A stretch of 64,000 bases of DNA from an uncultured virus (IMG/VR IMGVR_UViG_3300020466_000002) (Duplodnaviria > Heunggongvirae > Uroviricota > Caudoviricetes), in the IMG/VR virus record IMGVR_UViG_3300020466_000002; one strand, 5' to 3'. The position numbers were made by a program, and so were the translations under genes. The notes under the pieces were generated by a model, which did not search any database, was not told where the DNA came from, and saw only the letters and a program-made list of their open reading frames with translations. Positions 3,883 to 44,806 of the stretch are shown one piece after another; the stretch's first letter is position 1, and the number at the start of each line of letters is the position of its first letter.

Positions 3883-4230
3883 TTATTTTTTAATATAAGC
3901 AAATCCAGACTGAGCTGAACTAAATGCTATTGTTAATTGATTCTTGTTAACGTAAGTTACTATTCCAGTACCTTGTACGTTATCATATGTACCACTATCA
4001 ATTTTTAAAGACACATGTGGTAAGTGGTCTGTTAAATCTAAATTATGCGTTACTGTCCAAGTAGCAGAAGCAGAGTTTTGAACATGCTTAAATGTACCTG
4101 AATTTTCCGCAAAAAAGTTAGATAGGTCTTTTATCTTAAAATTCCTAGTATTGCCATTTTCGTCAGTACCTAGTAGTTTGTCTGTGTCTGATATAGTCGA
4201 ATCTAATTGATATTTGTTTATTCTTGGCAT
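3883..4230 (-). CDS. small structural/tail-associated protein
   Basis: 115 aa; WTVTHNL..PHVS motif seen in fibre-associated domains. Confidence 0.5.
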   Translation of the reverse strand: MPRINKYQLDSTISDTDKLLGTDENGNTRNFKIKDLSNFFAENSGTFKHVQNSASATWTVTHNLDLTDHLPHVSLKIDSGTYDNVQGTGIVTYVNKNQLTIAFSSAQSGFAYIKK

Positions 4231-4640
4231 TACTGTCCGTTTTTAAATTTGTTATATTTTTCTACACTTCGACCTCCGAAATAGGCCCCAATGGTAGTCA
4301 TAAGGACTAGCTGAAGTAAATCTGTCCATTTTTCTTCAACTTCGAATTGTAATGATCCACTATCAATAAATACCATGAGCACGGTCGCCACTATAAGGAA
4401 TACTAAAACGAGAGGACGAACTGAACGCGTTAACCAGTTTCCGTGCTCTAAATCTGCTTTCCACCTTTCGGTTACGTTTTTTTGCATAGCGGCTTCTGCT
4501 TCAATAAGTATTTCAGTCATTTCTTTTTCAAACGCTGCTTTCTCATCTTTTGTTCTAACGAACTTATCAACGACACCGCTAATCTTTTCAACAACACTAC
4601 CTCCAGCGTTGCCAAATAATTTAGCTAATATTTTACTCAT
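4230..4640 (-). CDS. holin, 3-TM GTA-holin-like
   Basis: RW.AD....WL.RSVRPL motif, two hydrophobic helices, GAYFGGRS.EK end. Confidence 0.7.
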   Translation of the reverse strand: MSKILAKLFGNAGGSVVEKISGVVDKFVRTKDEKAAFEKEMTEILIEAEAAMQKNVTERWKADLEHGNWLTRSVRPLVLVFLIVATVLMVFIDSGSLQFEVEEKWTDLLQLVLMTTIGAYFGGRSVEKYNKFKNGQ

Positions 4641-8382: not shown

Positions 8383-8823
8383 TTATCTATCTTTATCTTT
8401 AATCATATCATCAATAGCTTTATTAAAAACCTTGTCTGTATATGATTTATTATTATAAAAAACGTTTCGTTCTGAAGTTGGAAGGTCCTCTTCCCCTAAT
8501 AGGATTCTGTATATACGGGATATAAGTTGACTGCATTTAAATGAGGTTTTGTATATACTATATTTAATTGTGGTTCGGTTTCTATGTCTCCAAACTTCGA
8601 TCCAACCGTTTTTCCGAAGTCGCTCCCAGCGGTTTTTGTCCCAACTGTAAGTATAAGAGCCATCTATAAAATTATTACGTGTAAATCGCGATTTGCAATC
8701 TAAATAGACTAAAAGTTCTAAGTCAGCGTCTTTTAGATCATAGGTTTTACAGGCCCATTTGCGTACGAGCCTGTAATATTTAAATAAATTTAATTCCCTA
8801 AGATCTTGTGCACTTAATTTCAT
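8383..8823 (-). CDS. hypothetical protein, possibly winged-helix-like
   Basis: 146 aa ORF overlapping the groES stop by 4 nt. Confidence 0.55.
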   Translation of the reverse strand: MKLSAQDLRELNLFKYYRLVRKWACKTYDLKDADLELLVYLDCKSRFTRNNFIDGSYTYSWDKNRWERLRKNGWIEVWRHRNRTTIKYSIYKTSFKCSQLISRIYRILLGEEDLPTSERNVFYNNKSYTDKVFNKAIDDMIKDKDR

Positions 8824-9077
8824 TCTACTAAAACTATATCTTGAATTTGTATAACATGATATAGTTTATCTTCCTTTCTAATACCATGTCCAGCATGTTT
8901 ATCGTAAAATACTACGTCGTTTTCTTCAACACCCTTTACCAAATTACCTAGTGATATAATTTTTGCTTTAATATACCTGTTTTCAGTGTTCGTTTTGTCT
9001 GTTAATATAAGTCCAGCCACTTTTTTTGGCTCTTCTTTTATCTTTTCTACTAAAATGTAATATCCTATTGCTTTCAT
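8820..9077 (-). CDS. groES: co-chaperonin GroES-like
   Basis: 85 aa; ILVEK...AGLIL...V..NDVVFYDKHAG...DIV pattern; adjacent to groEL. Confidence 0.85.
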   Translation of the reverse strand: MKAIGYYILVEKIKEEPKKVAGLILTDKTNTENRYIKAKIISLGNLVKGVEENDVVFYDKHAGHGIRKEDKLYHVIQIQDIVLVE

Positions 9078-10630
9078 TTCTCAATTCTTATGTTAGATAT
9101 TACACAATCTGCTGAAATTATAGTAGAAACCACTGAAATCGCGTTTTTTAGCGCCGATTTTGTAACCAAAACCGGATCTATTATACCTTCTTTGATCATA
9201 TCTTGCTTTTTACCAGTAGTTACGTCAATTCCTTGACCAGTTTTGTACTGTGAAGTAGCATAATCGCTCATATCAGCGTTTTCTAAGATGATTTCAAAGG
9301 GTGATTTTATAGAAGTATGCAATATTTGCTCAAACTCAGTGTCTACGCTACAGTTTTTAGCTGCATCTAGTAAAGCAATTCCTCCACCTGGAACAATTCC
9401 TTCCTTTAAAGCAGCTTTTACAGCATAAATAGCATCTTCTACTCTATCTTTCTTTTCTTTTAACTCAATTTTTGAGTCTGCACCTACTTTTATTAGACCA
9501 ACTGACCCATTTAACATGGCTAATCTTTGATCTAGTCTACGTTTTAAGTATGGATTCTTCTCTTTTTTGATTTTTTTCTCAACATCAGCGATCCTTTCTT
9601 TTAATTGCTCTCCAGTTTTTGATACTGTAAGCACTGTAGACTTTTCTTCAGTAACTGATTTAAATGCTTCACCTAAAACGCTTGGTTCTATAAGATCTAA
9701 ATCATCACCTAGTTCTTCGTTTATTACTTTTGCACCCGTTAATAGTGCTAAATCTTCAATTGTATCTTGTTTTGTAGGTCCAAAACCAGGAGGATCTATA
9801 AAGTTTACCTTTATATTACCCTTAACTTTATTCATTAGTAACGTAGCTGACACTTGTTGTTCAACCTCTGCTACTATAAGTAAAGCTCTATTTTGTTTTA
9901 TAACATGTTCTAGTATTGGTTGTATCTTTCTTATATTTGGAATCGGTGAAGATACTATTAATATGTACGGGTTTTCAAGATCACACCTTTGTTTATCTTT
10001 ATCTGTAATAAGATGAGGTGATTTTAACCCTGATTCTAATTGTACACCATCTACAATTTCTACATGTGTTAGATCTGTATCAGATTCTTCCATCAAAACT
10101 ACACCATCTTTACCTACTTTAGTGTAAGCGTCAGATATTATATCTCCTAACTCTTTATCATTGTTACAAGATATTGCAGCTACATTATGTAACATGTTTC
10201 CTTCTACTGGAATCGATACATCATCTAAGTATTTATATACTTTATTAGCGTAATCACGAATACCTTTCTTAATTTCACGAGGTTGTTCGTCAACTTCTAA
10301 AGCATTTTTTAATAGTGATTCAGCAAGGACAGTAGCTGTTGTAGTACCATCACCTGCTTCTCTCACTGTGTTTTTAGCAGCTTCTTTTATAAGCGTTGCG
10401 CCTATATTTTCAACCGGATCAAGTAAGACTACGCTATCCGCAACGGTTACACCATCTTTTGTTATCACCGGTTTTCCACGCATGTCTTCATAAATTACAC
10501 ATTTACCAGATGCGCCTAGTGTAGACTTGACTGCTTTTGTTAGTTTGTCTACACCAGCAATTATCTTATCTTTAGCTTCTAAGCCAAATGACAAGTTTTT
10601 TATTAACTCGCTTGGGTTATTATATTCCAT
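9074..10630 (-). CDS. groEL: chaperonin GroEL-like
   Basis: ITKDGVTVA, AGDGTTTATVLA, KDRVEDA, GIVPGGG, GIIDP motifs; no GGM tail. Confidence 0.97.
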   Translation of the reverse strand: MEYNNPSELIKNLSFGLEAKDKIIAGVDKLTKAVKSTLGASGKCVIYEDMRGKPVITKDGVTVADSVVLLDPVENIGATLIKEAAKNTVREAGDGTTTATVLAESLLKNALEVDEQPREIKKGIRDYANKVYKYLDDVSIPVEGNMLHNVAAISCNNDKELGDIISDAYTKVGKDGVVLMEESDTDLTHVEIVDGVQLESGLKSPHLITDKDKQRCDLENPYILIVSSPIPNIRKIQPILEHVIKQNRALLIVAEVEQQVSATLLMNKVKGNIKVNFIDPPGFGPTKQDTIEDLALLTGAKVINEELGDDLDLIEPSVLGEAFKSVTEEKSTVLTVSKTGEQLKERIADVEKKIKKEKNPYLKRRLDQRLAMLNGSVGLIKVGADSKIELKEKKDRVEDAIYAVKAALKEGIVPGGGIALLDAAKNCSVDTEFEQILHTSIKSPFEIILENADMSDYATSQYKTGQGIDVTTGKKQDMIKEGIIDPVLVTKSALKNAISVVSTIISADCVISNIRIEK

Positions 10631-11460: not shown

Positions 11461-11658
11461 AAAAAAAACACGTTAGATATATTGAGGTACTGGGTTGCCC
11501 CTCCTCCCCTGCACTATGCCATTATAACAAAGTCAAATATTATTTGCCGGGCCCCACCTCTATTATCCTATTTACCTCGTATTACCATTGTAACCATGTA
11601 TATTAATAAACTCACTTTATAACTATGTATAAAATTACATAGAATAATTCACATTTTT

Positions 11659-11692
11659 ATTACATACATAATACGACTTATATTGGATAATA
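11659..11692 (+). promoter_or_regulatory. promoter-like motif copy 1 (ATTACA-N5-AATACGA-N9-GATAATA)
   Basis: Exact consensus and spacing, six copies in early arm. Confidence 0.8.
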
Positions 11693-11797
11693 TATATGAG
11701 AAATAACTTAAATGAATTATAAACTATTTAGATAATGAGAGAGAGTGTGGAATACTTAGAATATAAAATTAATAACTAAACATTTATACTACTTTTA

Positions 11798-11831
11798 ATT
11801 ACAAACTAAATACGAACTAAACTAGATAATA
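11798..11831 (+). promoter_or_regulatory. promoter-like motif copy 2
   Basis: ATTACA aacta AATACGA actaaacta GATAATA, upstream of first early ORF. Confidence 0.8.
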
Positions 11832-11875
11832 ATATAAAATAACTTAATTAATAATAACACTTAAATATAATAACT

Positions 11876-12103
11876 ATGAGTAACTTAACTACTAAAAGAT
11901 TTGTCGTAAGACAATCACTAATCGGCAAAAATGTAACATTTGAATTCACTAATAAAAAAGGTGACAAAATAACTTACAATCACGACAAAGTATTTTCAAT
12001 AATGAAAAATACACTAACTAAACTACCATGTTGGTTAAAGTACAAAAGCTATACTGCTACTAACAATATACCTTTAGTACTTAGAGACAAAGAGTTAGTT
12101 TAA
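11876..12103 (+). CDS. early hypothetical protein
   Basis: 75 aa ORF after the promoter motif; followed by hairpin and T-run at ~12090-12117. Confidence 0.7.
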   Translation: MSNLTTKRFVVRQSLIGKNVTFEFTNKKGDKITYNHDKVFSIMKNTLTKLPCWLKYKSYTATNNIPLVLRDKELV

Positions 12104-12171
12104 TACTAACTTTTTGTTTCACTCGGCGTCGAGCTGTGTTCTCTCGAGTATAAATAAAGTTGAGCAAGCAA

Positions 12172-12253
12172 TGACATTACGGTAACTTGCGTAAATCGGT
12201 GTGACCAAATTGGTACGTAGCAAGTAGTGGTTCGACTCCACTCATGTCAACTA
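12172..12253 (+). ncRNA. tRNA-like RNA 1 (no D-stem, no canonical anticodon arm)
   Basis: Acceptor TGACAT(T)/(C)ATGTCA, helix ACTTGC/GCAAGT, T-arm AGTGG-TTCGACT-CCACT, ends A-CTA. Confidence 0.6.
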
Positions 12254-12372
12254 TGGCACATATAAATACATATAAATTAAAAGTCGGCTTTCGACTGTAC
12301 GGAAAGCATTTCAATCTACTAACTAAAGAGCAACGTGCTCATGTAGTTCAAGTAGTTTATGATAACTATTAA
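12253..12372 (+). CDS. micro-ORF, 39 aa
   Basis: MAHINTYKLKVGFRLYGKHF...; aactATG start context shared with neighbours. Confidence 0.5.
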   Translation: MAHINTYKLKVGFRLYGKHFNLLTKEQRAHVVQVVYDNY

Positions 12373-12384
12373 AATTAAATAACT

Positions 12385-12555
12385 ATGATTAAATTTACTT
12401 ACAACAAAGTGTACAAGTATGTACAAAACAAGTCTGCATTCGATATATTTATGGATGTAGTAATGACTGCACTCGGATCAATAGCATTCGGTGGAATACT
12501 AGCAATGATATATCATATATCAAATGGTGCAACAGCAAACTTCGGAATATATTAA
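12385..12555 (+). CDS. micro-ORF, 56 aa, single TM
   Basis: ...VVMTALGSIAFGGILAMIYHI hydrophobic helix; taactATG start. Confidence 0.55.
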   Translation: MIKFTYNKVYKYVQNKSAFDIFMDVVMTALGSIAFGGILAMIYHISNGATANFGIY

Positions 12556-12556
12556 T

Positions 12557-12652
12557 ATGAAGAACTTTAGAAAAATAATTATAGACTTTCTATTCGTAGC
12601 GTTGGTATTTTATTTACTATATATCTCGCTATGGATATTCTGTCCTTGCTAA
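12557..12652 (+). CDS. micro-ORF, 31 aa, single TM
   Basis: MKNFRKIIIDFLFVALVFYLLYISLWIFCPC. Confidence 0.5.
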   Translation: MKNFRKIIIDFLFVALVFYLLYISLWIFCPC

Positions 12653-12663
12653 AATAAATAACT

Positions 12664-12723
12664 ATGCTAAGTTTAATAACTGGAATACTATATTTAATTA
12701 TAGTATACTTAATACTGAAATAA
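12664..12723 (+). CDS. micro-ORF, 19 aa hydrophobic peptide
   Basis: MLSLITGILYLIIVYLILK; taactATG start; tiles with neighbours. Confidence 0.35.
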   Translation: MLSLITGILYLIIVYLILK

Positions 12724-12724
12724 A

Positions 12725-12817
12725 ATGGAAGATAATAAATTAGATTACTGGATAATGTTTGTCAATGGTGAGATAACTCTTGAAACATTACAAGAATTAC
12801 TACTCGACTACGTATAA
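12725..12817 (+). CDS. micro-ORF, 30 aa
   Basis: MEDNKLDYWIMFVNGEITLETLQELLLDYV; ends at next promoter motif. Confidence 0.45.
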   Translation: MEDNKLDYWIMFVNGEITLETLQELLLDYV

Positions 12818-12850
12818 TTACATACGTAATACGACAACTACAAGATAATA
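12817..12850 (+). promoter_or_regulatory. promoter-like motif copy 3
   Basis: ATTACA tacgt AATACGA caactacaa GATAATA. Confidence 0.8.
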
Positions 12851-12862
12851 ATATAAAAACTT

Positions 12863-13048
12863 ATGAATAAATTAAAATTTACTAACCCAGATGTGTATGG
12901 TAAACCTCAAAATGTTATACTAAAATACAAAAATGGTGATGTCGAAGTGCTAGAATTTTGTAAAAATACTAGATTTTATGACTCGGCTGACAAAGCATAC
13001 AGAAGTTATCCAACTTTTACACATATAAAAAATAGAACTTATGCCTAA
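12863..13048 (+). CDS. early hypothetical protein
   Basis: 61 aa ORF directly after the promoter motif. Confidence 0.6.
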   Translation: MNKLKFTNPDVYGKPQNVILKYKNGDVEVLEFCKNTRFYDSADKAYRSYPTFTHIKNRTYA

Positions 13049-13289
13049 ATACTTTGACGACTTAACACTTGAAGAAATGTTCAAGCACCATGATCACACT
13101 TATATGATGAGTGATGACAATAGATACTATGAATCCGGCAGACGAGAGCGTGATATTATTGAAGATAAAGTATCATCAGTCGGCGGTTGGACAAAGGAAT
13201 TAGTAGATTTGTATAATAAATATGCACCCGAAGGTATGTTTCAAAAAGACTGGGAGTGGATGCAAGAAGTAAAAGAATTAAATAAATAA
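13041..13289 (+). CDS. early hypothetical protein
   Basis: 82 aa; HDHTYMMSDD motif. Confidence 0.65.
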   Translation: MPKYFDDLTLEEMFKHHDHTYMMSDDNRYYESGRRERDIIEDKVSSVGGWTKELVDLYNKYAPEGMFQKDWEWMQEVKELNK

Positions 13290-13291
13290 CT

Positions 13292-13732
13292 ATGAGTTAC
13301 ACTAAATACAGACAAGAAAGAGAAGCATTAGAGAATGCTTACGCAAGAAGATTACTGATCGAGTATGGTATTCGTGAAGTAACTACACAAAGACAAGCTA
13401 AAAATGGTACAAGAGAATTTGAGTTTCCTGTATCTACATATGCTAATACTAATGAGTATTACAAGAAATGGCTAAAATCTCAAGGTAGATCACTAAAAGA
13501 TACACCAAGATTAAGAATAGCTTGCTTTAAATCTGGCTATGTAAGAAAACAAAACGGTACTTACTCACCATATCAACTAAATAAAACCTACAATCAAAAT
13601 AGTAGGCAAATGTTCTTGATCGATGGTAAGCTAGAAATTAGAAAATATATAGGTAAAGCAAGAACTTTAATATGGAGTCAGCTTGCAAGAATGAACTACA
13701 TGTTAGAATATTACTTGAAGAATTACAAATAA
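13292..13732 (+). CDS. early hypothetical protein
   Basis: 146 aa basic ORF in operon. Confidence 0.65.
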   Translation: MSYTKYRQEREALENAYARRLLIEYGIREVTTQRQAKNGTREFEFPVSTYANTNEYYKKWLKSQGRSLKDTPRLRIACFKSGYVRKQNGTYSPYQLNKTYNQNSRQMFLIDGKLEIRKYIGKARTLIWSQLARMNYMLEYYLKNYK

Positions 13733-13755
13733 AATACGATAACTTCAAGATAATA
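13722..13755 (+). promoter_or_regulatory. promoter-like motif copy 4
   Basis: ATTACA aataa AATACGA taacttcaa GATAATA. Confidence 0.8.
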
Positions 13756-13762
13756 ATAATAT

Positions 13763-13978
13763 ATGAAATGTAAATGTAAACCAAACAATATAATACCTCC
13801 GCAGCGGGTGGCACTAGGGTATACCACTTGCGTCGAGTGTTCAACCACTGAACCATATGGTTGTGTGCAAATCACATACCATAAAACCGGCAACACTATA
13901 CAAATTATGCCTAAAGCTCAGGCGAAACGTATACGTAAGCTATCCGCTAGACGAGGTTACGGAACATGCTTAAGATAA
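13763..13978 (+). CDS. C4 zinc-finger protein (TraR/DksA-finger-like)
   Basis: CKC..IPPQRVALGYTTCVECS resembles the IP..R......C..C finger. Confidence 0.55.
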   Translation: MKCKCKPNNIIPPQRVALGYTTCVECSTTEPYGCVQITYHKTGNTIQIMPKAQAKRIRKLSARRGYGTCLR

Positions 13979-13982
13979 TAAT

Positions 13983-14201
13983 ATGGCAAAGATAAAACAA
14001 ATGAATATAGTAGCAGATGAAGTAGCTACTGATATAATAGAAGAAATATATAAACAATGTGATTGGCAAGTCGGCCAGTTTCTACCAGAAGAAGCTGAGG
14101 GCACACTTATAAACGACACTCATAGTTATCTCATGAGACTGGTCGCTCGCCACATCGCTAATAAACTAGATGTAACAACTAATAAATACTACGATGAGTG
14201 A
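13983..14201 (+). CDS. hypothetical protein
   Basis: 72 aa ORF in operon. Confidence 0.6.
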   Translation: MAKIKQMNIVADEVATDIIEEIYKQCDWQVGQFLPEEAEGTLINDTHSYLMRLVARHIANKLDVTTNKYYDE

Positions 14202-14451
14202 TTCAGTAAAAAAATACTTTGAAGATATGTCAGAGCATGAACAAATGGCAAGAGAAAAGGCCGTTAGTCAGGAGCTCGAAGTAAGAAAATATTTATGGGT
14301 ACTAGACTTTGAAATGGGTAGAGTATTCTTATATAATATCAGAAGAGAAGATCTACAACATGAAGATTATGAGGATTTACTAGTCCTAAAGGGACATAAG
14401 CCTACTAACTGTGAGTGGATGGTTTGTACATCTGATAGAATATATAGATAG
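14194..14451 (+). CDS. hypothetical protein
   Basis: 85 aa ORF in operon. Confidence 0.6.
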   Translation: MSDSVKKYFEDMSEHEQMAREKAVSQELEVRKYLWVLDFEMGRVFLYNIRREDLQHEDYEDLLVLKGHKPTNCEWMVCTSDRIYR

Positions 14452-14642
14452 AGGTTTAAGTCTGGAAGTCCTTGCGCGAAAGCCATAAGTGACGAAAGAG
14501 AGTATAAACATAATTTCCAGTTCTCTCCGCCTCTATAGTAAATCGCGAAGTACGTTTCGAACCATTGAAAGAGTATGGGATGTGAACGTGAAGCGCCCCT
14601 CGGTAACACAGTAGGCCTTGTGATGAAAACAAGAGGGGATTT
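14448..14642 (+). ncRNA. putative structured non-coding RNA upstream of tRNA-like RNA 2
   Basis: GC-enriched gap with nested stems ATAGAGG/CCTCTAT, CTGGAAG/TTTCCAG, GC-GAAA-GC, ACGTT/AACGT, CCAT/ATGG, CTTGT/ACAAG. Confidence 0.45.
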
Positions 14643-14718
14643 GGGCGTGAAATGGTAAGTGCTAAGTCCTGAATATAAATCTTAGCAAACGCAGGTTCGA
14701 CTCCTGCCACGTCCACTA
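14643..14718 (+). ncRNA. tRNA-like RNA 2 resembling a tmRNA tRNA-like domain without mRNA domain
   Basis: Acceptor GGGCGTG/CACGTCC with G3-U70, discriminator A, no D-stem, helix TGCTAAG/CTTAGCA, T-arm GCAGG-TTCGACT-CCTGC, ends A-CTA. Confidence 0.7.
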
Positions 14719-14752
14719 ATTACAATAAAAATACGACATAAGTCGGATAATA
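14719..14752 (+). promoter_or_regulatory. promoter-like motif copy 5
   Basis: ATTACA ataaa AATACGA cataagtcg GATAATA. Confidence 0.8.
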
Positions 14753-14778
14753 TATATAAATAATTAAATTAAATAACA

Positions 14779-15021
14779 ATGAGTAAATTAAAAACACTTT
14801 ATGACTTATTACAACCTAGTATTAAGTCACATTTGAAAGATAGTGCTAGAAAATATGACAGCGCTAAGAGATTAAAGTATAAACTCATGAGTTGTACATT
14901 ATGGCACGACTTATCAATATCTGATATTAGTGACCTATTGTCTTACTCAGGTTTTTATACAAGTGATGTAACTGCTAAAGATGTAATCTACGGTAGTAGG
15001 TTCTTAACAAATAAATACTAA
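14779..15021 (+). CDS. hypothetical protein
   Basis: 80 aa ORF after the promoter motif. Confidence 0.6.
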   Translation: MSKLKTLYDLLQPSIKSHLKDSARKYDSAKRLKYKLMSCTLWHDLSISDISDLLSYSGFYTSDVTAKDVIYGSRFLTNKY

Positions 15022-15479
15022 TGGAGTTACTAACAGATGATATTATTATTGAAGCTTTAGATAGCGATGGAATAATGCAGGAACCAGATGCTAATTGGCT
15101 AATGGAGTATATAAATTCAGAATACGGTGGAACATTAGATAACACTACTAGTTGGTGTGATAAAAACCATATGCTAAAAATATATACTGAATCAACATAT
15201 GATGGTTATGATATATGGTGGTGTACTCACGATGAGAGACCTTATGTATCACAAGATGGTTTTTACTATGAAGATCATAATGAATGGTCCTCACGAGCTA
15301 TTGATGAACTAACATCAGGTAGTGATGTGTGGGTAGAACCTCATGTGTGGGAAGATATGGAATACGAGTTCAATCACGAATTAGAACAATGGTGGACAGA
15401 TATATATGAAGATTATTTTAACGATAAAAAAGATGAGTTATTAGACTCAGGAGATTACTATGAAGACAAAGACAAATAA
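15021..15479 (+). CDS. highly acidic hypothetical protein
   Basis: 152 aa, very D/E- and aromatic-rich. Confidence 0.65.
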   Translation: MELLTDDIIIEALDSDGIMQEPDANWLMEYINSEYGGTLDNTTSWCDKNHMLKIYTESTYDGYDIWWCTHDERPYVSQDGFYYEDHNEWSSRAIDELTSGSDVWVEPHVWEDMEYEFNHELEQWWTDIYEDYFNDKKDELLDSGDYYEDKDK

Positions 15480-15759
15480 ACAAAATAAACCTAAATGGTT
15501 TCATGGAGCTTGGTACAAAACAGGTGACATTGTAACTAATCCATTTAGTGGTGAAATGTATGAATTAACAGGTCCAGAGTTATCTATGTATGACTTTATT
15601 AAAGGAGCTGAGTATACACTTACCATACACGATAGAGATATTTTTGACGACTCAGGAGTACAAGATCCTTCAATGGTTAAATTACAAAAAGATATGATTA
15701 AAGCTTTAGACTGGTTCAGATCAGAAAACCCTACAGCTTATATGACATTACTAGATTAA
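15460..15759 (+). CDS. hypothetical protein
   Basis: 99 aa; C-terminal WFR..NP.AYM.LLD. Confidence 0.65.
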   Translation: MKTKTNKQNKPKWFHGAWYKTGDIVTNPFSGEMYELTGPELSMYDFIKGAEYTLTIHDRDIFDDSGVQDPSMVKLQKDMIKALDWFRSENPTAYMTLLD

Positions 15760-15760
15760 T

Positions 15761-16075
15761 ATGACAAGTATAGAATTTAATGCGTTAGTAAATGAGTTAG
15801 ACTCATACGCAATACAAACAATGAATAAGAAAGGTCCTGAATATACTACAGGAAATGAAGATGTACTAAATAACTTTAAAGCTACAGCTAAAAAACTAGG
15901 TGTAGATCCTTTAGTTATATGGTATGCTTACTTTGATAAGCAAGTTAGCTCTGTTGCTGCTCATGTTAGCAATGAAGATTTAAATAAAGCAGAACCTATG
16001 ATTAGTAGGTTTGGAGATATTATTAACTATGCAAAGCTTGGCTATGCATTATTTAATGAGAGAGATAACTTATGA
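15761..16075 (+). CDS. nucleotide-modification-associated all-alpha domain (DUF1599-like)
   Basis: KKG.EY....D.L.NF...K...D..NY pattern. Confidence 0.55.
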   Translation: MTSIEFNALVNELDSYAIQTMNKKGPEYTTGNEDVLNNFKATAKKLGVDPLVIWYAYFDKQVSSVAAHVSNEDLNKAEPMISRFGDIINYAKLGYALFNERDNL

Positions 16076-16236
16076 TGTGCAAAGATGTAATGATAACTTT
16101 GTTATCTCTTATAGAAAAAGAGATGAAACGAAGAATTGAACATTCATACTTTGAAGAAGAATCTGACAAATGGAGTAAATTTCATGGTTGGATTAGAGAA
16201 ATACGTTTAACAATAAATAAAGGCGGAATAAAATGA
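16072..16236 (+). CDS. hypothetical protein, 54 aa
   Basis: ATGA overlaps at both ends, fills the gap. Confidence 0.5.
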   Translation: MMCKDVMITLLSLIEKEMKRRIEHSYFEEESDKWSKFHGWIREIRLTINKGGIK

Positions 16237-16754
16237 GTACAAGAAATTTAACAATGGTAGTCGATAGAGACTACGCAAGTCAAAACGATCTAGGTTTTGC
16301 TGCTAACCCTTCAGTTTATGCTGACAATAGCTATGTAAATATGTATTTACATCACGATGGTTATCCTGAATGGCAAGGTGTACAGTTAGCAAACTGGATC
16401 CATAGCAATGCTAGACAAGATGGTGCCGCGTTAGCTGCAAAGCTAGTACACGATCATTACTATGACAGTTGCTACTTATACGCAGACCATCAAAATATAG
16501 ATCACCAATATACTTATATTATATGGACAGGTGATTCTAAAGATATATGGATTAGTTGCTACGACCAATACAGTAGTAGATGTGTATTTGTATTAAAACC
16601 AGAAAAGATTATATCTAAATATATGAAACAAGATGATCCTATGGATTACACTGATTTTGCTAATGGTGCTACAAGATATACATCAAGTAAAGCTGATAAA
16701 GTAGATTTCCATAGTAAAAGATTAATAGATATACTAAATGGTATTACAGACTAA
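16233..16754 (+). CDS. conserved phage hypothetical protein
   Basis: Y.HHDGYPE..G motif common in early phage proteins. Confidence 0.65.
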   Translation: MSTRNLTMVVDRDYASQNDLGFAANPSVYADNSYVNMYLHHDGYPEWQGVQLANWIHSNARQDGAALAAKLVHDHYYDSCYLYADHQNIDHQYTYIIWTGDSKDIWISCYDQYSSRCVFVLKPEKIISKYMKQDDPMDYTDFANGATRYTSSKADKVDFHSKRLIDILNGITD

Positions 16755-16776
16755 ATACGATAACTAATGGATAATA
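16743..16776 (+). promoter_or_regulatory. promoter-like motif copy 6
   Basis: ATTACA gacta AATACGA taactaatg GATAATA. Confidence 0.8.
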
Positions 16777-37120: not shown

Positions 37121-40100
37121 TTATTTTTTTCTTTTTTTATAATTTTCAAGTGCTCTTTTACGTGCTTCGTCTTTGCTTTTATTGTATTTATTTGGATTTC
37201 TTGATTTATCTCTTAGCTTATCTTTTTTTACTTTTTCTTTTAATTTAGCTCTATTAGGATCAGCAACAGATCCAAGGTCCCATGTATTCCAACCCATAAA
37301 GTTAGCTATTCTCTGCCAAGTTGCATTTTGATTATTCAAAGAAGCTCTAACATTATTTAGTTTATTAAATACTCTATCTAAAGGAACGTTAGTAAAACCA
37401 GAAACAACATTACCAACCGCATTGTACGCAGGACTTCTTAAATCAAAGCCATATTCAGCCATTATATCTTTATTAAACCTATACTCTTGTATACCAGAAT
37501 ATACTCTTCTAAGTTTACTTCCAATTGGTGGTGATAAATTTGCAAATTCAATAACAGTGTAAGTGTGATCAGCCATAAATCCTTTATCTTCTTGTTCTTT
37601 AAATTTAAGTAAAATATTTTTAAGAGTAGATACACCGGCACCATAAACACCACCACCTCTTAATATTGTATCCATCATGTTATTCATTATTCTATGTCTC
37701 TTTTTAAGAAACATTTTATCTTTTTCTTCTTCATCTTCTTCAAATACAACTGCAAACAATGCTGATTGCATAGATGTAAATATTAAGTTTTGAACAAAAC
37801 TATAATATACTAATTTTGAAATATTTGTTTTAGCATCACCCCTACCATTTTTGAGATCAAGAAAAGCTTTCTTAGTTAACCTCATATACTGCATTGGTGT
37901 ATTTTGGAACGCGAGTATTAATCTACCTAATGGTCCAGCTTGTTGCATTGAAATCATATCAGGTCTAGCTGACTGCTGTGTTGCTTCTGATATATCTGCA
38001 AAATCTTGAAAAGCTTGTTTTTCAGCTTCTGCTTGAGACATACCTTCAGCTAAATAAGTATTAATTCTATTTCTGTACATTGTAGCACCACCTGAAGCAA
38101 TAGCAAAACTATCCGCTAGCTGTGTTGGTGTAAAACCTACTCTTAACAAAGCTCTTAACAAAGCTGTTGGATTACCATTTTTACCTTTAACTGCCGATGC
38201 AATTTCAGCTTCGTTTACATCTGTTTGTAAACCAGCTCTTCTTTGCTTTAGCATGTCTGAATTAAATATGTACACAAAATCTTTTACATATTGATCCCAA
38301 TTAGCTACAGCTGCAGCTGCTTTTAATGGATTGTTGTCACTCCAGTTAACAAAGTTTACCATTGATATTGTTTGTAAAACTGCAGATCTCATATTGAAGA
38401 ACATAATAGCACCAACAGAGTTATTAACCCAATCTGAAAATCTATTTACTAATTTATTATTACCAAATTTTCTATTAGTACCATTTTCCATTCTCCATAA
38501 CATATCTTCTAAAGCTTCTCTAAAATCAGTACCATAGATAGATTCTATTTTATTTAAATTCTTTTTACTAAATATAATATTCTTAGCTTCTATCCATTCT
38601 TTAAGGTAGTGTTTTCTACCTTGTTTCATTGTTATGTCGTTTATATCTTTAGCTACATTACCAACAGTCCAGTTTTCATCTGGCTTAGTATAACCTTGAT
38701 CTTTAGTTAATTTAATTAAACCATTACCAAAAGCTTTATAACCAGCGTTATTTTCTATAGCTTTTACTAAAGCATTTATTTCTTTTTTAGATATACCAGG
38801 TATTTCGTATCCTAACTTGTTCCACACATATACTCTAATACCATCTGAAACAGTGAAAGGTCCAACTCCTATATCTTCATTTAATTCAGCTGTAACAACA
38901 GGTTCTAACTTTTTTAATTCTTGCAACCCGTTTAAATAAATCTGTTTAGCTTGGTTTATTTTTTGAATAGCTCTAGAAAAAGGATCAAATAATGTTTCTT
39001 TAAAAAACTTATAATGATTATTACCTTGTTCACCTTTACCCATAAACATATACATAAGACCAACAAAATCTTCAGCGCCTGGTGGCATCCACCAAGAATT
39101 TTTTACTTGTGATCCTTTTGATTTAGCAGCTGCGTCACTAACATTTGTTTTTGCATTTACACCGCTTTGCTCATATATTATATTGTTCATTTCAGCGTCT
39201 AGATCTGATTTACTATATTGTATACTTCTTGACGGTGTTAATACTTTTCTTTCACCAGTCATAGGATCTATATTTGGTCCTCTTCTGTCAAGAACAATAA
39301 CTTCTAAAGCATATTTCAACGCATCTTTAATTTCTTTATTCTTCTCTTGTGGAATGAGTTTCCTTAATTCATCAGGTGATCTTTCATTTATAGCTTTTTG
39401 AGCTACTTTTGCTATTTCTAATTTTTTTCTCCAATATTCTTTAGTGTTGTAACGTTGAATACGATTACCAATATCATCTGCTAAAAAAAGATTTGTTTCG
39501 ATGTTATCTATATTATACTTACTAAACTGAACTTGTTTAACCTTATGATTTACATCAACAACTTCTAATACTTTTTGTACAGCTTCTACGTTTTTATAAG
39601 CGTCATCTACAAAATAAAAGTCGTTATACCCATTAGCTGCTTTATCTATAACCCATTCAGCTTTAGCATCAGGTCTACCATCTTCTAAACCTGTTATGTT
39701 TTCAATAGGTATTTCTAAACCTAATTCTTTCATAAATTTATATATAGCTGGAGCAGCTTGTTGAGGTCTTGCTGTTAATATAAATATATGTTTATTACCA
39801 AACTTACCAATAGCTTTTCTAAGTTTAGCAACTAGTGGCCCAGGTTTACCATTTATAACCTCGTTAAATTGTTTAAAATCAAACTCAGCTCCCTGTGCTT
39901 CTAGCTCAGAAGCTTTTACAGCAAATTCAGCAGGTGTTATTTCAGTTACAGTATTGTCAGGCATTTTAACTATAATCTTACTATCACTATATGCTAATGT
40001 ATCGTCAAAATCAAATATACTTATACCTTTATGAGGAGCATCAGGATCTCTAGCTATTTCAATTGCTTTGTTTACTTTTTGTTGTAACTCAAAATCTGAT

Positions 40101-43100
40101 TTACTATATTGTATTAAACTAGGAGCAATAACCTTATCTTCAACAACATCATACATGTACATAGGTAGATCATCATATCTAGTTTCAAATTGACTATCAC
40201 CAGGTTTATGGTTAATACCCATTTTACTTCTACGACCACTTTTACTTAAAGCATCGTCTTGTTTTTGAGGTATTATAGCTACATCATAATTTGCTACTTC
40301 TTTTTGTAATAATGTTTTATTACCCGTTACAACATATAAATAAGCTAAATCTCTTATATAGTTTGCTGGTGACATATGTTCTAATACCCATTTATCATCT
40401 TTATAAGCTAGCCCTTGTTTTATTTGTTCTTCTTTACTTAATAAATTACCATTTTTATCACTAGGTAAATATCTAGGACCAGCCATTACCTTACCAGGAC
40501 TAAACTGATTTGCAAATAAATTAGTTAATAACCATTGTACAGCTCCTAAGCTTATGTTACCATTATCGTAACCTTCTTTTATTTTAGGTAACAACACATC
40601 CAACATAAAATCTTTTTCAGCTTTAGAATCTTCGTATATTTCTTTTACAGCTTGTTTTTTACCATTATCATCTAGGTTATTATAATCGCTATCTTCATTA
40701 ACATACCATTGTCCATGCTTATATGTATTATCATTTCTTGCTTGACCTCTTTCTGGTTTAAAACCTAAATTATCTTGTGCGTCCTTAGCGTTAGCAAATA
40801 TAGAATCTCTAACTGTAGGTTTTACCATTTTACCTTTTTTATTTTTCTTTAATGGTATTTCAATTAGCTCTGATGCTTTTACTAATATATTTTTTATAGC
40901 TCCTTTAGCTTTAAAACCAGCTAATCTAGCAGGCATATAAACAGAAGGATAAATGTATTTTACAAAATCTGCTAAAGATATGTCAGAATCAAATAACCAT
41001 TTTACAGCTTGCCTAACATCATTTAAACTACTTCTACTATTAAAATCTTTTTCATTTTTTAAACCTAACTTAGCGTTTATACTATCCATGTCAGTAGCTT
41101 CTTTTAAATTGTAGCTAACGTTTTGTATTAAGAAGTCAACAGTTTTTTCTACATTATATTTTTTAGCTTTAACAACTGAGTCTTTTATTTTCCACTCAGA
41201 ACCTATTTCTCTAGCAATTAACCTAGCTTCTTCTTTAGTTATTCCTAATTCTGCTACATTATTTACTAATATATCTCTTATAGTTTTTTCTATGTAATTA
41301 TCAACTTGTTTAAAGTTTTCAATAAAACTACCTCTATGTTCTGTTATTAATGATAATATTTTAGGTATAAGTTTTTTATTAGGTTTTATATCGTTTTCTA
41401 TATCTCCTCTAGTTATAGAATGAGCAGTTTTACTAAACTGAACTACATCACCATCCATATTTTCTTCAGTCTTAGGATCTAAATATACTTGAATATCTTT
41501 TATTAACTTTTCAACTTGTATAACAGCTGTGGTACTACTATGTAGATTAGCTTTTTTAACCATACCTTCAACGATTTTAGTATCGTTTAATATATTGCCT
41601 AATTCTATTTGCACAAAATTACCAGCCATATCATTAGCAAGTTGCTTTTGTCTAGCTCTCAATGTTGTTAAACCACCTTGTGTAAAATATTTTATAAATG
41701 TTGCTTTTAAAGGTTTAGATATTTTATGATCTACCTTTCTATAATAACTATCTTTTTTAAGTAAAGGATTATCTTTCTTTAAATTCTTTTTATCTGTAAC
41801 ACCTATTTTTTCTTTACTAAATATTGTGTTAAGTTTTTTAAGTCTAGCAACAGGGTAAGCTTTTATTATATCTTCAAAGCCCATTGTTAACATTTCCATG
41901 TATTGATCTGGAATTACTGCTACATTTTTACCATCTACTTTTTTAGACTTAATTGGTCCGAGCTCGTTTAATACTTTATCTGTTATATCTTTATTTATTA
42001 AAGCTTCTATTTTAGCTATTAATTTTTCAACCTCTTCAGTTATTTTTTTATTTCTATTAGCTCTTGCTGCTGGATTTGGATCAGTACCTGCTAATTTAAC
42101 TAATGTAGATAAAGCACTTGTTACAAGGTTTTTTATTTGTCCTTCTAGTTTTTTATTATAAAAAGGTTCACCTTCTACATTTTTAATAACCTTGTTAAAG
42201 TTATTTTGTTTTCTTTGTTTTCTTGACGTATCTTTTTTAGTTTCTTTAGCTTTAACATTTTTAGCTTCTGATATATCTACACCCATTTGCTCAACACCAC
42301 CAATAGCTTTAGCTCTAGTAAATATTTCAGCTTGTCTATTTTTAAGTGTTGATCCTAAAAAGGTTGTTACTTCGTTGTCTGGATTATAAGTATTAAATAA
42401 TGGAGTTTTACGGCTGACCTTATTACCGTTTGGTAATGTTACCGTTGGGAATATACCAAGCATTTGTTCTGCAACAGCTTCTTTAACTGCCTCGATTGGT
42501 ATTTGGCCATTAGGATCGAATTTTAGTGCGTTACTAATTACAGGCCAGTTTCTTTCTATTAAAGCTTCTACAGCTCCAAATCTATCTTCTTGTGTAGATT
42601 GTGGTGAGTTTATTATATCAACTAGTGATTTATTATCTATTTCAAGATCTAAAAATTGTTGCGCTCTTGGATTAACTTCTTTAGAAAATTGTAACTGTAA
42701 ATCTTTAGATTCTTGTAAACCACCTTCTTGTGCTAGATCAGTATCACCAATAGCTTGTTTAGCTTCTTTTGTTAGTTTTCCTTCTTGTACGCTTTTGCCA
42801 TATGTTTTCATAAAGTTATAAACACCTTTTCCGTCTTTAAAACTTATATTATCAAAACCTTCACCTTTAAATAAACCTACAACAGCGTCACCTACTTTTT
42901 CAAGTAAGCTTTTATCATAATTAATTCTTTCTTGGGCTAACATATCTGCAAACACATTAACATACTCTGTGTCGTACTCCGCACCAGTATAACCTCTGTC
43001 TTTCATTTCTTGATCAACAGCTGATCTTTGTGCCCATGTCATAGATCTTCTAAACTGTTTAACCATTTTACCTTGAGCTATTCTATCTCCTACTTTAGCG

Positions 43101-44806
43101 TTTAATATTTTATGTAAGAATTCGTGACTACCAACACCAATTTGACCTTGTTCGCTAGCTACTTCTTTATTAATAAATATTTTACCACCAACAGTAAATC
43201 CAGCTACTTTACCACTTTGATCTTTAAACTCTTGTTTTTGTTTTTTATCAACTTCACTAAGACCTTCCATTGCTTGTTCAGTCTCTTTAGTTGTATTTAA
43301 AACTGTTGTTTGTAAACCTTTTGCTGCATCTTCTTTAGACACTGTATCTTTTACAAACTTAATATTGTCTTCTAACTTCATGTCTTGAAGTTTTTGTCTA
43401 GCGTCTTTATATTCTTTTTCAAAACCTACTCTAGCAGTTTCAAATTCTGAATCAGATATTACACCTGCTCTTTTCTTCCTATGTAATTCAGTTATTTTAA
43501 AAGCAGCAGCATCAGCTAAATCTGATAAACTATTTATTTCATTTAACTGATCGTTGCTTAAGTTATTATATATTTTATTTCCTTTTCTTACAGAATCAGC
43601 AATATCTTGTTCTAATACATCTATTTGCTTTTGTATACCTTCAGCAGTAGTTGCGTCTTTTGTGCCTTTAAGTTTTATTCTTAAATCACCTATTTTATCT
43701 ATGTTTTCACTAACCTTTTTTCCATCAACAACGGATCTTATATTGCTTAGTGATTTAGCAGCGCTTCCACCACCAACAATACCACCACCACCAAGGAAAC
43801 CTTGTATACCAGCTTCTAAACCCTCTTCGCTAAATAGAGCTTCTATAGCAGCATCAACTGGATTAGCGTCTATATCTGTACCAGCTACCCTACCCATTTC
43901 AGAGTTTACCTCATCACCGACATGCTGTAATATCTCCGTGTTGAATTCTGCAAATCCACCACCAAGCATATTCATTACATCTCTACCGTTTTTACTATAA
44001 AATATTTTATTAGTTAATTGCTTAGGTATCATTTTTAAGAATGGTGCTCCTCTACCTCTAGTAGCTATTAATGTTGCTGGAACTATTGATTCTAAAGCTG
44101 TATTGACAACACCCATTGCTACTGGTATTTTACTTTCTGCATCACCGGATTTTATTAACTCCTCTAGACTAACACCTGTATTTTGAGCTTTTTGTTTATT
44201 ATACTCTACATAGTTATTAGCTATAAAGTCAGATAAGAAACCACCACCTACTGTACCAGCACCATAAGCAACACTACCTAACATATTTGTTATAGCATTG
44301 AATGATCCAGCTAACACTCCACCAACATCTCCTTTCTTCCAACTTTCAACAACACCAAGTGTTCGTTTTGTTTTTTCTTGTTCTTTCTTATACGCTTCTA
44401 TAGCTTGTATCGTGTGTTCATCACCAACCTCAAACCCAATAAAACCACTTTTATCCTTTTTTTGTCTACCTGTTAAGATTTGATATATTCCGTTACTTGC
44501 TATGTCTTTTGCAGAACCAGCACCATCGTCACTAAACCACCACTCGCCAACATCCCAGATCATTTCACCTAGGTTCTCCATTGAGTTACTTACGGATTGC
44601 CAAGCGGTTAATTCTTCAGCTGAATCCGAAGAACCAATTTCCGAGTTGGAGACCATATCGTTTTCCGATCCTACATTGGTCTCCGCATTGGCAGGATCGA
44701 CTTCCTTTCCCAAAGAAGTGTTATATTTGTTTATTACATCTTGTATGAACTCATGTGACTTACCATCGTCAATCATTTGTTGCACGACATCTTTTATTTC
44801 AGCCAT
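37121..44806 (-). CDS. giant multidomain internal virion/ejection protein
   Basis: 2561 aa after tail/ejection genes; HEFLH zincin motif, FDFDDTL HAD motif, five Q[FY]SK linkers. Confidence 0.75.
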   Translation of the reverse strand: MAEIKDVVQQMIDDGKSHEFIQDVINKYNTSLGKEVDPANAETNVGSENDMVSNSEIGSSDSAEELTAWQSVSNSMENLGEMIWDVGEWWFSDDGAGSAKDIASNGIYQILTGRQKKDKSGFIGFEVGDEHTIQAIEAYKKEQEKTKRTLGVVESWKKGDVGGVLAGSFNAITNMLGSVAYGAGTVGGGFLSDFIANNYVEYNKQKAQNTGVSLEELIKSGDAESKIPVAMGVVNTALESIVPATLIATRGRGAPFLKMIPKQLTNKIFYSKNGRDVMNMLGGGFAEFNTEILQHVGDEVNSEMGRVAGTDIDANPVDAAIEALFSEEGLEAGIQGFLGGGGIVGGGSAAKSLSNIRSVVDGKKVSENIDKIGDLRIKLKGTKDATTAEGIQKQIDVLEQDIADSVRKGNKIYNNLSNDQLNEINSLSDLADAAAFKITELHRKKRAGVISDSEFETARVGFEKEYKDARQKLQDMKLEDNIKFVKDTVSKEDAAKGLQTTVLNTTKETEQAMEGLSEVDKKQKQEFKDQSGKVAGFTVGGKIFINKEVASEQGQIGVGSHEFLHKILNAKVGDRIAQGKMVKQFRRSMTWAQRSAVDQEMKDRGYTGAEYDTEYVNVFADMLAQERINYDKSLLEKVGDAVVGLFKGEGFDNISFKDGKGVYNFMKTYGKSVQEGKLTKEAKQAIGDTDLAQEGGLQESKDLQLQFSKEVNPRAQQFLDLEIDNKSLVDIINSPQSTQEDRFGAVEALIERNWPVISNALKFDPNGQIPIEAVKEAVAEQMLGIFPTVTLPNGNKVSRKTPLFNTYNPDNEVTTFLGSTLKNRQAEIFTRAKAIGGVEQMGVDISEAKNVKAKETKKDTSRKQRKQNNFNKVIKNVEGEPFYNKKLEGQIKNLVTSALSTLVKLAGTDPNPAARANRNKKITEEVEKLIAKIEALINKDITDKVLNELGPIKSKKVDGKNVAVIPDQYMEMLTMGFEDIIKAYPVARLKKLNTIFSKEKIGVTDKKNLKKDNPLLKKDSYYRKVDHKISKPLKATFIKYFTQGGLTTLRARQKQLANDMAGNFVQIELGNILNDTKIVEGMVKKANLHSSTTAVIQVEKLIKDIQVYLDPKTEENMDGDVVQFSKTAHSITRGDIENDIKPNKKLIPKILSLITEHRGSFIENFKQVDNYIEKTIRDILVNNVAELGITKEEARLIAREIGSEWKIKDSVVKAKKYNVEKTVDFLIQNVSYNLKEATDMDSINAKLGLKNEKDFNSRSSLNDVRQAVKWLFDSDISLADFVKYIYPSVYMPARLAGFKAKGAIKNILVKASELIEIPLKKNKKGKMVKPTVRDSIFANAKDAQDNLGFKPERGQARNDNTYKHGQWYVNEDSDYNNLDDNGKKQAVKEIYEDSKAEKDFMLDVLLPKIKEGYDNGNISLGAVQWLLTNLFANQFSPGKVMAGPRYLPSDKNGNLLSKEEQIKQGLAYKDDKWVLEHMSPANYIRDLAYLYVVTGNKTLLQKEVANYDVAIIPQKQDDALSKSGRRSKMGINHKPGDSQFETRYDDLPMYMYDVVEDKVIAPSLIQYSKSDFELQQKVNKAIEIARDPDAPHKGISIFDFDDTLAYSDSKIIVKMPDNTVTEITPAEFAVKASELEAQGAEFDFKQFNEVINGKPGPLVAKLRKAIGKFGNKHIFILTARPQQAAPAIYKFMKELGLEIPIENITGLEDGRPDAKAEWVIDKAANGYNDFYFVDDAYKNVEAVQKVLEVVDVNHKVKQVQFSKYNIDNIETNLFLADDIGNRIQRYNTKEYWRKKLEIAKVAQKAINERSPDELRKLIPQEKNKEIKDALKYALEVIVLDRRGPNIDPMTGERKVLTPSRSIQYSKSDLDAEMNNIIYEQSGVNAKTNVSDAAAKSKGSQVKNSWWMPPGAEDFVGLMYMFMGKGEQGNNHYKFFKETLFDPFSRAIQKINQAKQIYLNGLQELKKLEPVVTAELNEDIGVGPFTVSDGIRVYVWNKLGYEIPGISKKEINALVKAIENNAGYKAFGNGLIKLTKDQGYTKPDENWTVGNVAKDINDITMKQGRKHYLKEWIEAKNIIFSKKNLNKIESIYGTDFREALEDMLWRMENGTNRKFGNNKLVNRFSDWVNNSVGAIMFFNMRSAVLQTISMVNFVNWSDNNPLKAAAAVANWDQYVKDFVYIFNSDMLKQRRAGLQTDVNEAEIASAVKGKNGNPTALLRALLRVGFTPTQLADSFAIASGGATMYRNRINTYLAEGMSQAEAEKQAFQDFADISEATQQSARPDMISMQQAGPLGRLILAFQNTPMQYMRLTKKAFLDLKNGRGDAKTNISKLVYYSFVQNLIFTSMQSALFAVVFEEDEEEKDKMFLKKRHRIMNNMMDTILRGGGVYGAGVSTLKNILLKFKEQEDKGFMADHTYTVIEFANLSPPIGSKLRRVYSGIQEYRFNKDIMAEYGFDLRSPAYNAVGNVVSGFTNVPLDRVFNKLNNVRASLNNQNATWQRIANFMGWNTWDLGSVADPNRAKLKEKVKKDKLRDKSRNPNKYNKSKDEARKRALENYKKRKK

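Follow-up and report, generated by a model that had tools for sequence, protein, structure and literature searches.

A message-less tmRNA gene in a marine crAss-like phage and its conserved family in marine phage DNA

Transfer-messenger RNA (tmRNA) reduced to its tRNA-like domain (TLD) has been described before in a phage: the excerpts of PMC4131195 list “Mycobacterium phage DS6A (TLD only)” (Table 2 and text) and attribute to Mao et al. 2009 the strong inhibition of tmRNA by a molecule of similar kind, for which titration of SmpB is offered as a possible cause. Both the DS6A and the inhibition statements are repeated in the excerpts of PMC11915505, which also describe tmRNA genes of about 65 base pairs (bp) without a coding sequence (CDS) in the plastids of Mallomonadaceae, as well as mitochondrial forms. 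The element analysed here lies at positions 14643-14718 (+ strand) of a 64,000-nucleotide (nt) stretch of DNA from an uncultured virus (IMG/VR record IMGVR_UViG_3300020466_000002; “the window” refers to this whole stretch), a marine crAss-like phage. By the homology of its fold and layout to the two ends of tmRNA and to the DS6A element, it is a message-less (“TLD-only”) tmRNA gene. The type is already known from DS6A and the element is not a new principle; what is new is the abundance of the type in marine phages, the test of its wobble pair, the explanation of its ACUA end, its expandable stub, a sister class of 47 nt and the unclassified RNA modules that surround it. No description of the marine phage family was met in the literature on tmRNA, DS6A and crAss-like phages.

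The sequence at 14643-14718 was confirmed by direct reading, as given in an initial annotation made from the letters of the DNA. It comprises a predicted mature RNA of 73 nt (14643-14715) and a CUA trailer (14716-14718); CCA is not encoded. The 5' strand of the acceptor stem, GGGCGUG (14643-14649, with G3 at 14645), pairs with the 3' strand CACGUCC (14708-14714, with U70 at 14712), and the discriminator A73 follows at 14715, so that the 3' half of the acceptor occupies 14708-14715. Between the two strands lie an unpaired 10-nt D-loop analogue, AAAUGGUAAG, without a D stem (14650-14659), a stub hairpin where tmRNA would have helix P2, the stub being the variable part of the family (14660-14687; 7 bp, UGCUAAG/CUUAGCA, 14660-14666 with 14681-14687, and a loop of 14 nt), the trinucleotide AAC, and the T arm GCAGG/UUCGACU/CCUGC (14691-14707; 5-bp stem and 7-nt loop of the UUCGAnU type). 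The fold put forward in the initial annotation (acceptor stem, G3-U70, A73, D-loop, stub of 7 bp with a 14-nt loop, T arm) is identical to the minimum free energy (MFE) structure and to the centroid structure of RNAfold (-25.1 kcal/mol, z -3.57, none of 200 shuffled sequences as stable), and the D-loop analogue is unpaired in both. The T-loop motif GGTTCRANTCC was found twice in the window, where 0.05 occurrences were expected.

Covariance models and ARAGORN had been proposed as checks together with the initial annotation. Under permissive filters, the tmRNA model of Rfam (RF00023) aligned to the element end to end (model positions 1-374) with 33.2 bits and an E-value of 2.7e-11; its curated gathering score, a cut-off set for full-length tmRNA, is 47 bits. 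In this alignment 326 central positions of the model, the whole message domain, are replaced by 29 nt, and the D-loop analogue AAAUGGUAAG falls on model positions 8-18, GAucuGGaUUCG. At gathering scores, Rfam gave no matches in the window, and ARAGORN called no tRNA or tmRNA gene in it. tmRNA was the top-scoring Rfam family for the element, above the tRNA model of the same clan, overlapping weaker matches to families of that clan (tRNA included) being omitted from the Rfam listing. Two other identities were considered and rejected: an ordinary tRNA (RF00005), for the fold has no D stem, ARAGORN called no gene and the model score was lower than that of tmRNA; and a full tagging tmRNA, as no resume codon, tag frame or pseudoknots were found and 29 nt separate the two halves of the TLD as aligned.

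The DS6A element (JN698994, 28478-28560) gave a comparable result with cmscan (RF00023 43.2 bits, also under the 47-bit cut-off, with 312 model positions deleted). Both elements are phage-borne, measure approximately 75-83 nt, and combine a 7-bp acceptor stem bearing G3-U70 and A73, an unpaired GG-containing D-loop analogue, a short hairpin in the place of P2 and the message domain, a T arm and an ACUA end. They show no sequence kinship past the tmRNA consensus, and DS6A is a GC-rich actinophage whereas the window belongs to an AT-rich marine crAss-like phage. A P2a-like stem was aligned by the tmRNA model in DS6A but is absent from the window copy, and the family of the window element is further set apart by a stub expandable from 0 to approximately 150 nt and by the 47-nt sister class. 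Compared by description, the CDS-less organellar tmRNAs of PMC11915505 (excerpts) are likewise natural tmRNA homologs cut down to about the TLD, but they are organellar housekeeping genes served by a nucleus-encoded SmpB, and not phage accessory genes.

Covariation across related phages, another check proposed with the initial annotation, was found in an alignment of 24 copies: 288 of 288 cells were paired and five of the 12 pairs showed double changes, while none of 500 shuffles matched this covariation and slid controls dropped to 42-56% paired. G3-U70 was present in all 24 copies, acceptor pairs 4, 5 and 6 were each doubly changed in one of the 24, and two pairs of the T stem carried compensatory changes in relatives. 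The acceptor variants observed (GGGAGUG/CACUUCC, GGGCAUG/CAUGUCC, GGGCGCG/CGCGUCC and GGGUGUG/CACAUCC) all kept G3-U70 and A73. In a curated set of 31 copies, G3-U70 was found in 29, A73 in 30 and the CUA trailer (CTA in the DNA) in 29. Among the metagenome matches listed, the partner of U70 was G in 110 of 112 copies and A, which would form a Watson-Crick pair, in the other two; the search pattern used there left the 5' strand free, so that the count of G3 was unforced. That the G3-U70 wobble was held through divergence while neighbouring pairs covaried speaks for selection on an alanine identity element: the alanine identity set (G3-U70 and A73) is under selection.

The family was recovered by several routes. 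The 25 nt of the T arm and 3' acceptor strand occurred exactly in 11 viral contigs: nine with the same layout and another central hairpin, one without a hairpin, and one representing a GC-rich tRNA-like gene. Synteny searches with the downstream gene (gene Y) gave 19 related viral loci. A covariance model (R1), built from an alignment (A3) of 24 copies with the window copy in its seed, scored 76.2 bits on the window element, as a seed member, and detected a strong copy (at least 47.9 bits) in 12 of the 19 synteny loci as well as in the window; eight of these 12 loci had fed the model and four (L017, L185, L191 and L192) were new. The other seven loci end within approximately 1.4 kb downstream of the anchor gene Y, sequence too short for absence to be claimed, the element being located 0.7-1.4 kb downstream of gene Y in five loci. 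Ten loci were scanned with Rfam, and RF00023 aligned end to end in all eight stub-bearing relatives (26.2-40.4 bits). In the curated family of 31 copies, the region between the acceptor and T arms (stub included) measured 36-153 nt, and acceptor stem and T arm were present in the MFE structure of 30; the GG of the D-loop analogue was kept across the family alignment. At least 118 metagenome stretches matched a pattern whose fixed parts were limited to the T loop, the 3' strand of the T stem and that of the acceptor. Among the matches listed, 112 had a recognisable 5' strand and represented 94 distinct elements of 44-178 nt (median 90.5), the 44-nt forms having no stub. The central hairpin spans from 0 to approximately 150 nt across the family, some homologs lacking it entirely; an ordinary tRNA fold with a 7-nt anticodon loop in homologs, which the initial annotation had named among the observations that would speak against it, was not encountered. 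The alanine-type element is therefore a conserved and widespread phage gene, and its description as the TLD of a tmRNA without a message is borne out by the best-scoring Rfam family, by eight of eight relatives aligning alike, by the same architecture in DS6A and by the retention of G3-U70 and A73.

No cultured phage that carries the family was found. BLAST of 13500-16000 and 14400-14800 against 50,697 phage records gave nothing but one 29-nt match to the T arm, in Microbacterium phage Gack. The nearest record (G001, 57 kb, 88% complete) contained no match to 14400-14800 or to RF00023, and the region is possibly absent from that record; R1 found no stub-bearing copy in three deposited phage records sharing the terminase (two cultured phages and one spring-water assembly): the record of Flavobacterium phage elemoE gave no hit, and Cellulophaga phage phi14:2 gave two weak ones, one of them the 3' end of a full tmRNA homolog discussed below. 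In the third, MW202828.1, the closest deposited relative, R1 hit a tRNA gene at 523-630 (L197; RF00005 47.3 bits) whose anticodon arm has gained 46 nt and which was not called by ARAGORN. A divergent alanine-type mini-tmRNA (acceptor GGGCAUG/CAUGUCC, T stem GUAGG/CCUAC) was observed at 1501-1599 of locus L038, on a contig (C10) that was binned into a Flavobacteriaceae metagenome-assembled genome (MAG) and is probably phage.

For comparison with host-type genes, complete tmRNA genes (120-154 bits) were taken from three MAGs, two of Flavobacteriaceae and one of Sphingobacteriales; these genes start GGGGUCGACCGGUUUUGAC or similar and end UUUGGAC-T arm-CGACUCCACCA or similar. One-piece tmRNAs (host-type and that of phi14:2) resemble the element in lacking a D stem and in carrying G3-U70 in the acceptor stem, A73 and a T loop of the form UUCGAnU, and their GGUU..GAC-type D-loop analogue is common to many family members. 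They differ in that pseudoknots, resume codon and tag frame are missing from the element (the 326 model positions mentioned above), and in the acceptor, GGGCGUG in the element versus GGGGUCG or GGGGACG in host-type tmRNA (strands GGGGUCG.../...CGACUCC in Flavobacteriaceae). The junctions flanking the central region also differ: UAGAC...GUAAC in many family members and AAGUG...CAAAC in the window, versus UUGAC...UGGAC in host-type genes, the Rfam consensus being GAC...GGAC at the base of P2a. With a different acceptor and no GGAC junction, the element cannot have been copied recently from a host TLD.

These differences bear on whether the locus might be a DNA relic, either a functionless tmRNA pseudogene in decay or the terminal part of a host tmRNA gene copied as an att site. 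Integration into tmRNA genes is common, and a true remnant was found in a Flavobacteriaceae MAG (L039), consisting of only the 3' 45 nt and identical to the tmRNA of that genome. The window element, however, has both acceptor strands, which covary, and differs from host-type tmRNA ends; a scan of 185,579 prokaryote species, each represented by a single genome, gave no exact match to its 25-nt 3' part; no integrase was found among the 71 window open reading frames (ORFs) scanned; and the fold is kept in 94 distinct copies among the metagenome matches listed. A relic is thus very improbable, and its att-site form, tried as a separate candidate, is contradicted by the lack of identity to host 3' ends, the presence of the 5' strand and the failure to find an integrase.

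A full-length counterpart exists in a related phage. In phi14:2, a crAss-like Cellulophaga phage (NC_021806), positions 4031-4502 hold a tmRNA homolog of full length that is missing from the annotation (RF00023 46.0 bits, just below the cut-off, and an ARAGORN tmRNA call). Its 5' end is host-like, and it lies in a CDS-free zone flanked by the annotated genes g004 and g006. The excerpts of preprint 10.1101/2020.03.07.982082 describe phi14:2 RNAs from the g004-g005 and g005-g006 intergenic regions as early, persistent and more abundant than most genes, and give their function as unknown; we infer that these abundant junction RNAs originate from the zone of the tmRNA homolog.

The initial annotation had pointed out that the element ends in ACUA and not in ACCA. 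CCA is indeed not encoded, but the ending itself is not unusual and follows a local rule: in all nine distinct ordinary tRNA genes of related loci (eight tRNA-Met and one tRNA-Gly) the discriminator is followed by C+UA, and the ACUA end is no anomaly because these genes share the CUA trailer. The end CCACUA was also found in one Bacteroidota host-type (Sphingobacteriales-type) tmRNA gene and in the DS6A element.

Regarding function, we regard it as an even call that the element acts as a TLD-only tmRNA which undergoes tRNA-like processing, CCA addition and alanylation and competes with host tmRNA for SmpB, EF-Tu or the alanyl-tRNA synthetase (AlaRS). Having no resume codon or tag frame, it could not tag proteins and would therefore compete with host tmRNA. 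Transcription of the element would take place early, as the last part of a short early unit; its 5' end would be cut by RNase P, and its 3' end would be processed in the manner of the phage's own tRNAs, with CCA added afterwards. The host AlaRS would charge the product, which would bind SmpB and EF-Tu and compete with host tmRNA, and trans-translation tagging and rescue would be blunted or redirected during infection. This competition would fall at the time when decay of host and phage mRNA yields many non-stop ribosomes. Past the fold and the selection for G3-U70 and A73, these are steps that we infer. The additional proposal of the initial annotation, a bait for tRNA-targeting defences, found no support.

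Two further kinds of tRNA-like element occupy the same regions. The 47-nt class (L002, L014 at 2290-2339, L015, L021, L022 at 2107-2156, and L044-L065) is composed of a 7-bp acceptor stem, an invariant 15-nt stretch CUACGGUACUAA(A/G)GU and a T arm; helices were perfect in 18 of 22 pattern hits, eight different covarying acceptor stems were found, the discriminator is mostly U, and the class went undetected by Rfam at E up to 0.05. In the window itself, a second anticodon-less mimic of the top half of tRNA is located at 12172-12253 (+ strand), after ORF 11876-12103 in the same early region. Its acceptor, UGACAU(U)/CAUGUCA, has 6-7 bp and contains A3-U70, and its other parts are a stub hairpin, the T arm AGUGG/UUCGACU/CCACU with the T-loop motif, a discriminator A and a CUA trailer; the mimic scored 22.5 bits with R1 (E 0.0007-0.0012) and only 19.3 bits with RF00005, and a homolog is present in L016.

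Several observations weigh against the TLD-only tmRNA reading, some against the identification and others against the proposed function. The RF00023 score of the element lies under the curated cut-off, and ARAGORN recognised neither it nor any other tRNA or tmRNA gene in the window. Most copies were found by patterns fixing the T arm, the 3' acceptor strand and A73, so that the conservation of these features is overstated, and variants altering several features at once escape such patterns. A3-U70 replaces the wobble pair in two of the 31 curated copies and in two of the 112 metagenome copies listed. SmpB contacts nucleotides of the junction, GAC...GGAC at the base of P2a in the Rfam consensus; the host-type GGAC junction before the T arm is replaced by AAAC or UAAC in the phage elements. 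As the element is not a copy of a host-type TLD, SmpB binding cannot be assumed. Only one of the eight acceptor stems of the 47-nt class, which shares the genomic niche, bears G3-U70, and the second window element at 12172-12253 is not alanine-type either; the niche itself therefore does not demand alanylation. Finally, no SmpB, AlaRS or CCA-adding enzyme was found among the 71 window ORFs scanned.

The surroundings of the element were also analysed. The transcription unit that ends with it has gene X as its last ORF (14194-14451, + strand; 85 amino acids (aa), no family, no Pfam hit), the 3' end of which is conserved in related loci. The 142 nt that follow (14452-14593) had no homolog in the fetched loci, and the 191-nt stretch 14452-14642 gave no fold signal (z 0.37). 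A hairpin module, M5 (14596-14638, + strand), ends 4 nt before the element and consists of an outer stem CCCCUC/GAGGGG, an inner hairpin and the conserved UGAAAACAAG; eight distinct versions were found, with compensatory changes in both stems, and M5 precedes either element class or another module. Downstream, a promoter-like motif, ATACGAN-N8-GATAATA (14731-14752, + strand), starts 13 nt past the trailer and precedes the next gene, gene Y (14779-15021, + strand; 80 aa, no family, no Pfam hit), the early gene that served as synteny anchor. Seven copies of this motif occur in 11561-16776, where chance would give 0.15; six of them precede early ORFs on the + strand, and the seventh lies on the - strand at the divergence point. 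To judge from this distribution, the motif is probably the early promoter of the phage lineage; it was not found in the phi14:2 stretch examined. A scan for sigma-70 promoters and terminators performed no better than on shuffled sequences, and no intrinsic + strand terminator was found. Among the metagenome matches listed, there were 101 distinct contexts: the motif was found 8-16 nt past the element in 11 and within 160 nt downstream in 13, M4 (another of the modules) was directly upstream in 17, and M5 in seven. Flanking motif and modules being present in few contexts, the alanine-type element travels as an independent gene.

Transcription data were limited to assembled contigs in all RNA runs, and short structured RNAs are lost in such libraries. 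RNA-library contigs of two studies cover gene X together with the non-coding stretch upstream of the element; they terminate at 14648, 14625 and 14617 and have no loose ends. An RNA contig of a third study stops at 14527, while DNA runs contain the whole stretch. The RNA contigs do not reach 14649-14880, which, given the library type, is uninformative on the expression of the element; the stops are a weak hint of a transcript end at its 5' border.

The main rival reading is a tRNA-like processing and 3'-end signal acting in cis, a tentative and on the whole unlikely explanation that nevertheless deserves attention: RNase P and the tRNA 3'-end machinery would cut at the borders of the element, ending the early transcript behind the protective M5 hairpin and separating neighbouring small RNAs, and the mini-RNA would be a by-product. 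tRNA punctuation and the mascRNA of MALAT1 are parallels. mascRNA and the 3' tRNA-like structures of plant viruses are tRNA mimics, with the anticodon absent or irrelevant, at the 3' end of longer RNAs, and RNase P, the CCA-adding enzyme or aminoacyl-tRNA synthetases recognise such mimics; they belong to eukaryotic or RNA-virus systems and have no homology to the phage element. The position of the element, which closes an early unit that has no intrinsic + strand terminator and is followed after 13 nt by another promoter-like motif, fits a cis signal, as do the interleaving of both element classes with structured modules and a tRNA-Met gene in relatives, the free acceptor identity in the 47-nt class and, as a weak hint, the RNA contigs of two studies stopping at 14617, 14625 and 14648. 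RNase P and 3'-end processing, however, need neither G3-U70 nor A73 nor an invariant D-loop analogue, yet all of these are held, and the motif (13 of 101), M5 (seven of 101) and M4 (17 of 101) accompany the element in few of the contexts listed. Such processing is moreover compatible with, and partly required by, the TLD-only tmRNA reading.

Between the flanking genes, relatives carry a series of modules: M5, M2-M4, a tRNA-Met gene and elements of the 47-nt class. M2 was present in L014, L016 and L019-L022, M3 in L013, L014 and L021, and M4 in L002, L010, L016, L018 and L022; in L019, L021 and L022, M2 has a tRNA-like element as its immediate neighbour on one side and tRNA-Met on the other. 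No Rfam family matched any of M2-M5 with an E-value of up to 0.05. Different RNAs (L098 143-330, L019, L021, L022 and L010) share a module of roughly 45 nt that includes ACGGAAGUGUAUUA: it was observed within the stub of the mini-tmRNA, inside M2 and free-standing. Its recurrence in several RNAs suggests, from the sequences, module shuffling. The 185-nt element of L098 received an ARAGORN tmRNA call, the tag of which is probably spurious.

Given these arrays, the element may also be seen as part of a set of RNA tools, so far unrecognised, that marine crAss-like phages carry in their early regions, with the TLD as scaffold or handle. Two top-half classes are interleaved with at least four conserved unclassified modules, and the stub would be an expansion site taking inserts of up to approximately 150 nt; the TLD would then handle the processing, stability or ribosome delivery of other modules, and not only compete for SmpB or AlaRS. 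We consider this doubtful, although worth keeping in view. The co-occurrence of two top-half mimic classes with several unknown RNA modules would suit a decoy or sponge for some other factor: a defence nuclease or toxin that sees the acceptor/T-arm half, RNase R, or a phage protein using the RNA as cofactor. There are phage proteins that bind pieces of tRNA or tmRNA: AcrIIIA1 co-purifies with tRNA and tmRNA fragments, according to the excerpts of PMC11662646. On the other hand, no defence or partner gene is linked to the element, the flanking ORFs belong to no family, and the element has no anticodon loop, the usual target of tRNA-cleaving defences; a decoy of this kind is improbable.

The window is phage DNA, with terminase, portal, virion proteins, primase/helicase, ribonucleotide reductase and DNA ligase. 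Its terminase is closest to those of phages of Flavobacterium, Cellulophaga, Tenacibaculum and Maribacter (87 records), and DNA of the source phage was found in many marine metagenome runs: the source is a marine crAss-like phage of Flavobacteria-type hosts. Other genes of the window include one for a 2561-aa protein without Pfam or PHROG hit (37121-44806, - strand), which from its size and neighbourhood is possibly the crAss-type virion RNA polymerase; one for a protein with crAss “muzzle” domains (49504-54030, - strand); and a phage GroES/GroEL pair (8823-10630, - strand) with relatives on phage-like contigs binned into MAGs of several phyla.

If the TLD-only tmRNA reading is true, a phage could use tag-less mini-tmRNAs to disturb the main ribosome-rescue and tagging pathway of its host or to circumvent it. 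DS6A is the only such example in print, and the element reveals a type widely present among marine phages with hosts of Bacteroidota type, with its identity pair under selection and its centre freely expandable. The whole family is missed by standard annotation (ARAGORN, and Rfam at gathering scores), and the sister class and neighbouring modules are leads to unknown phage non-coding RNAs.

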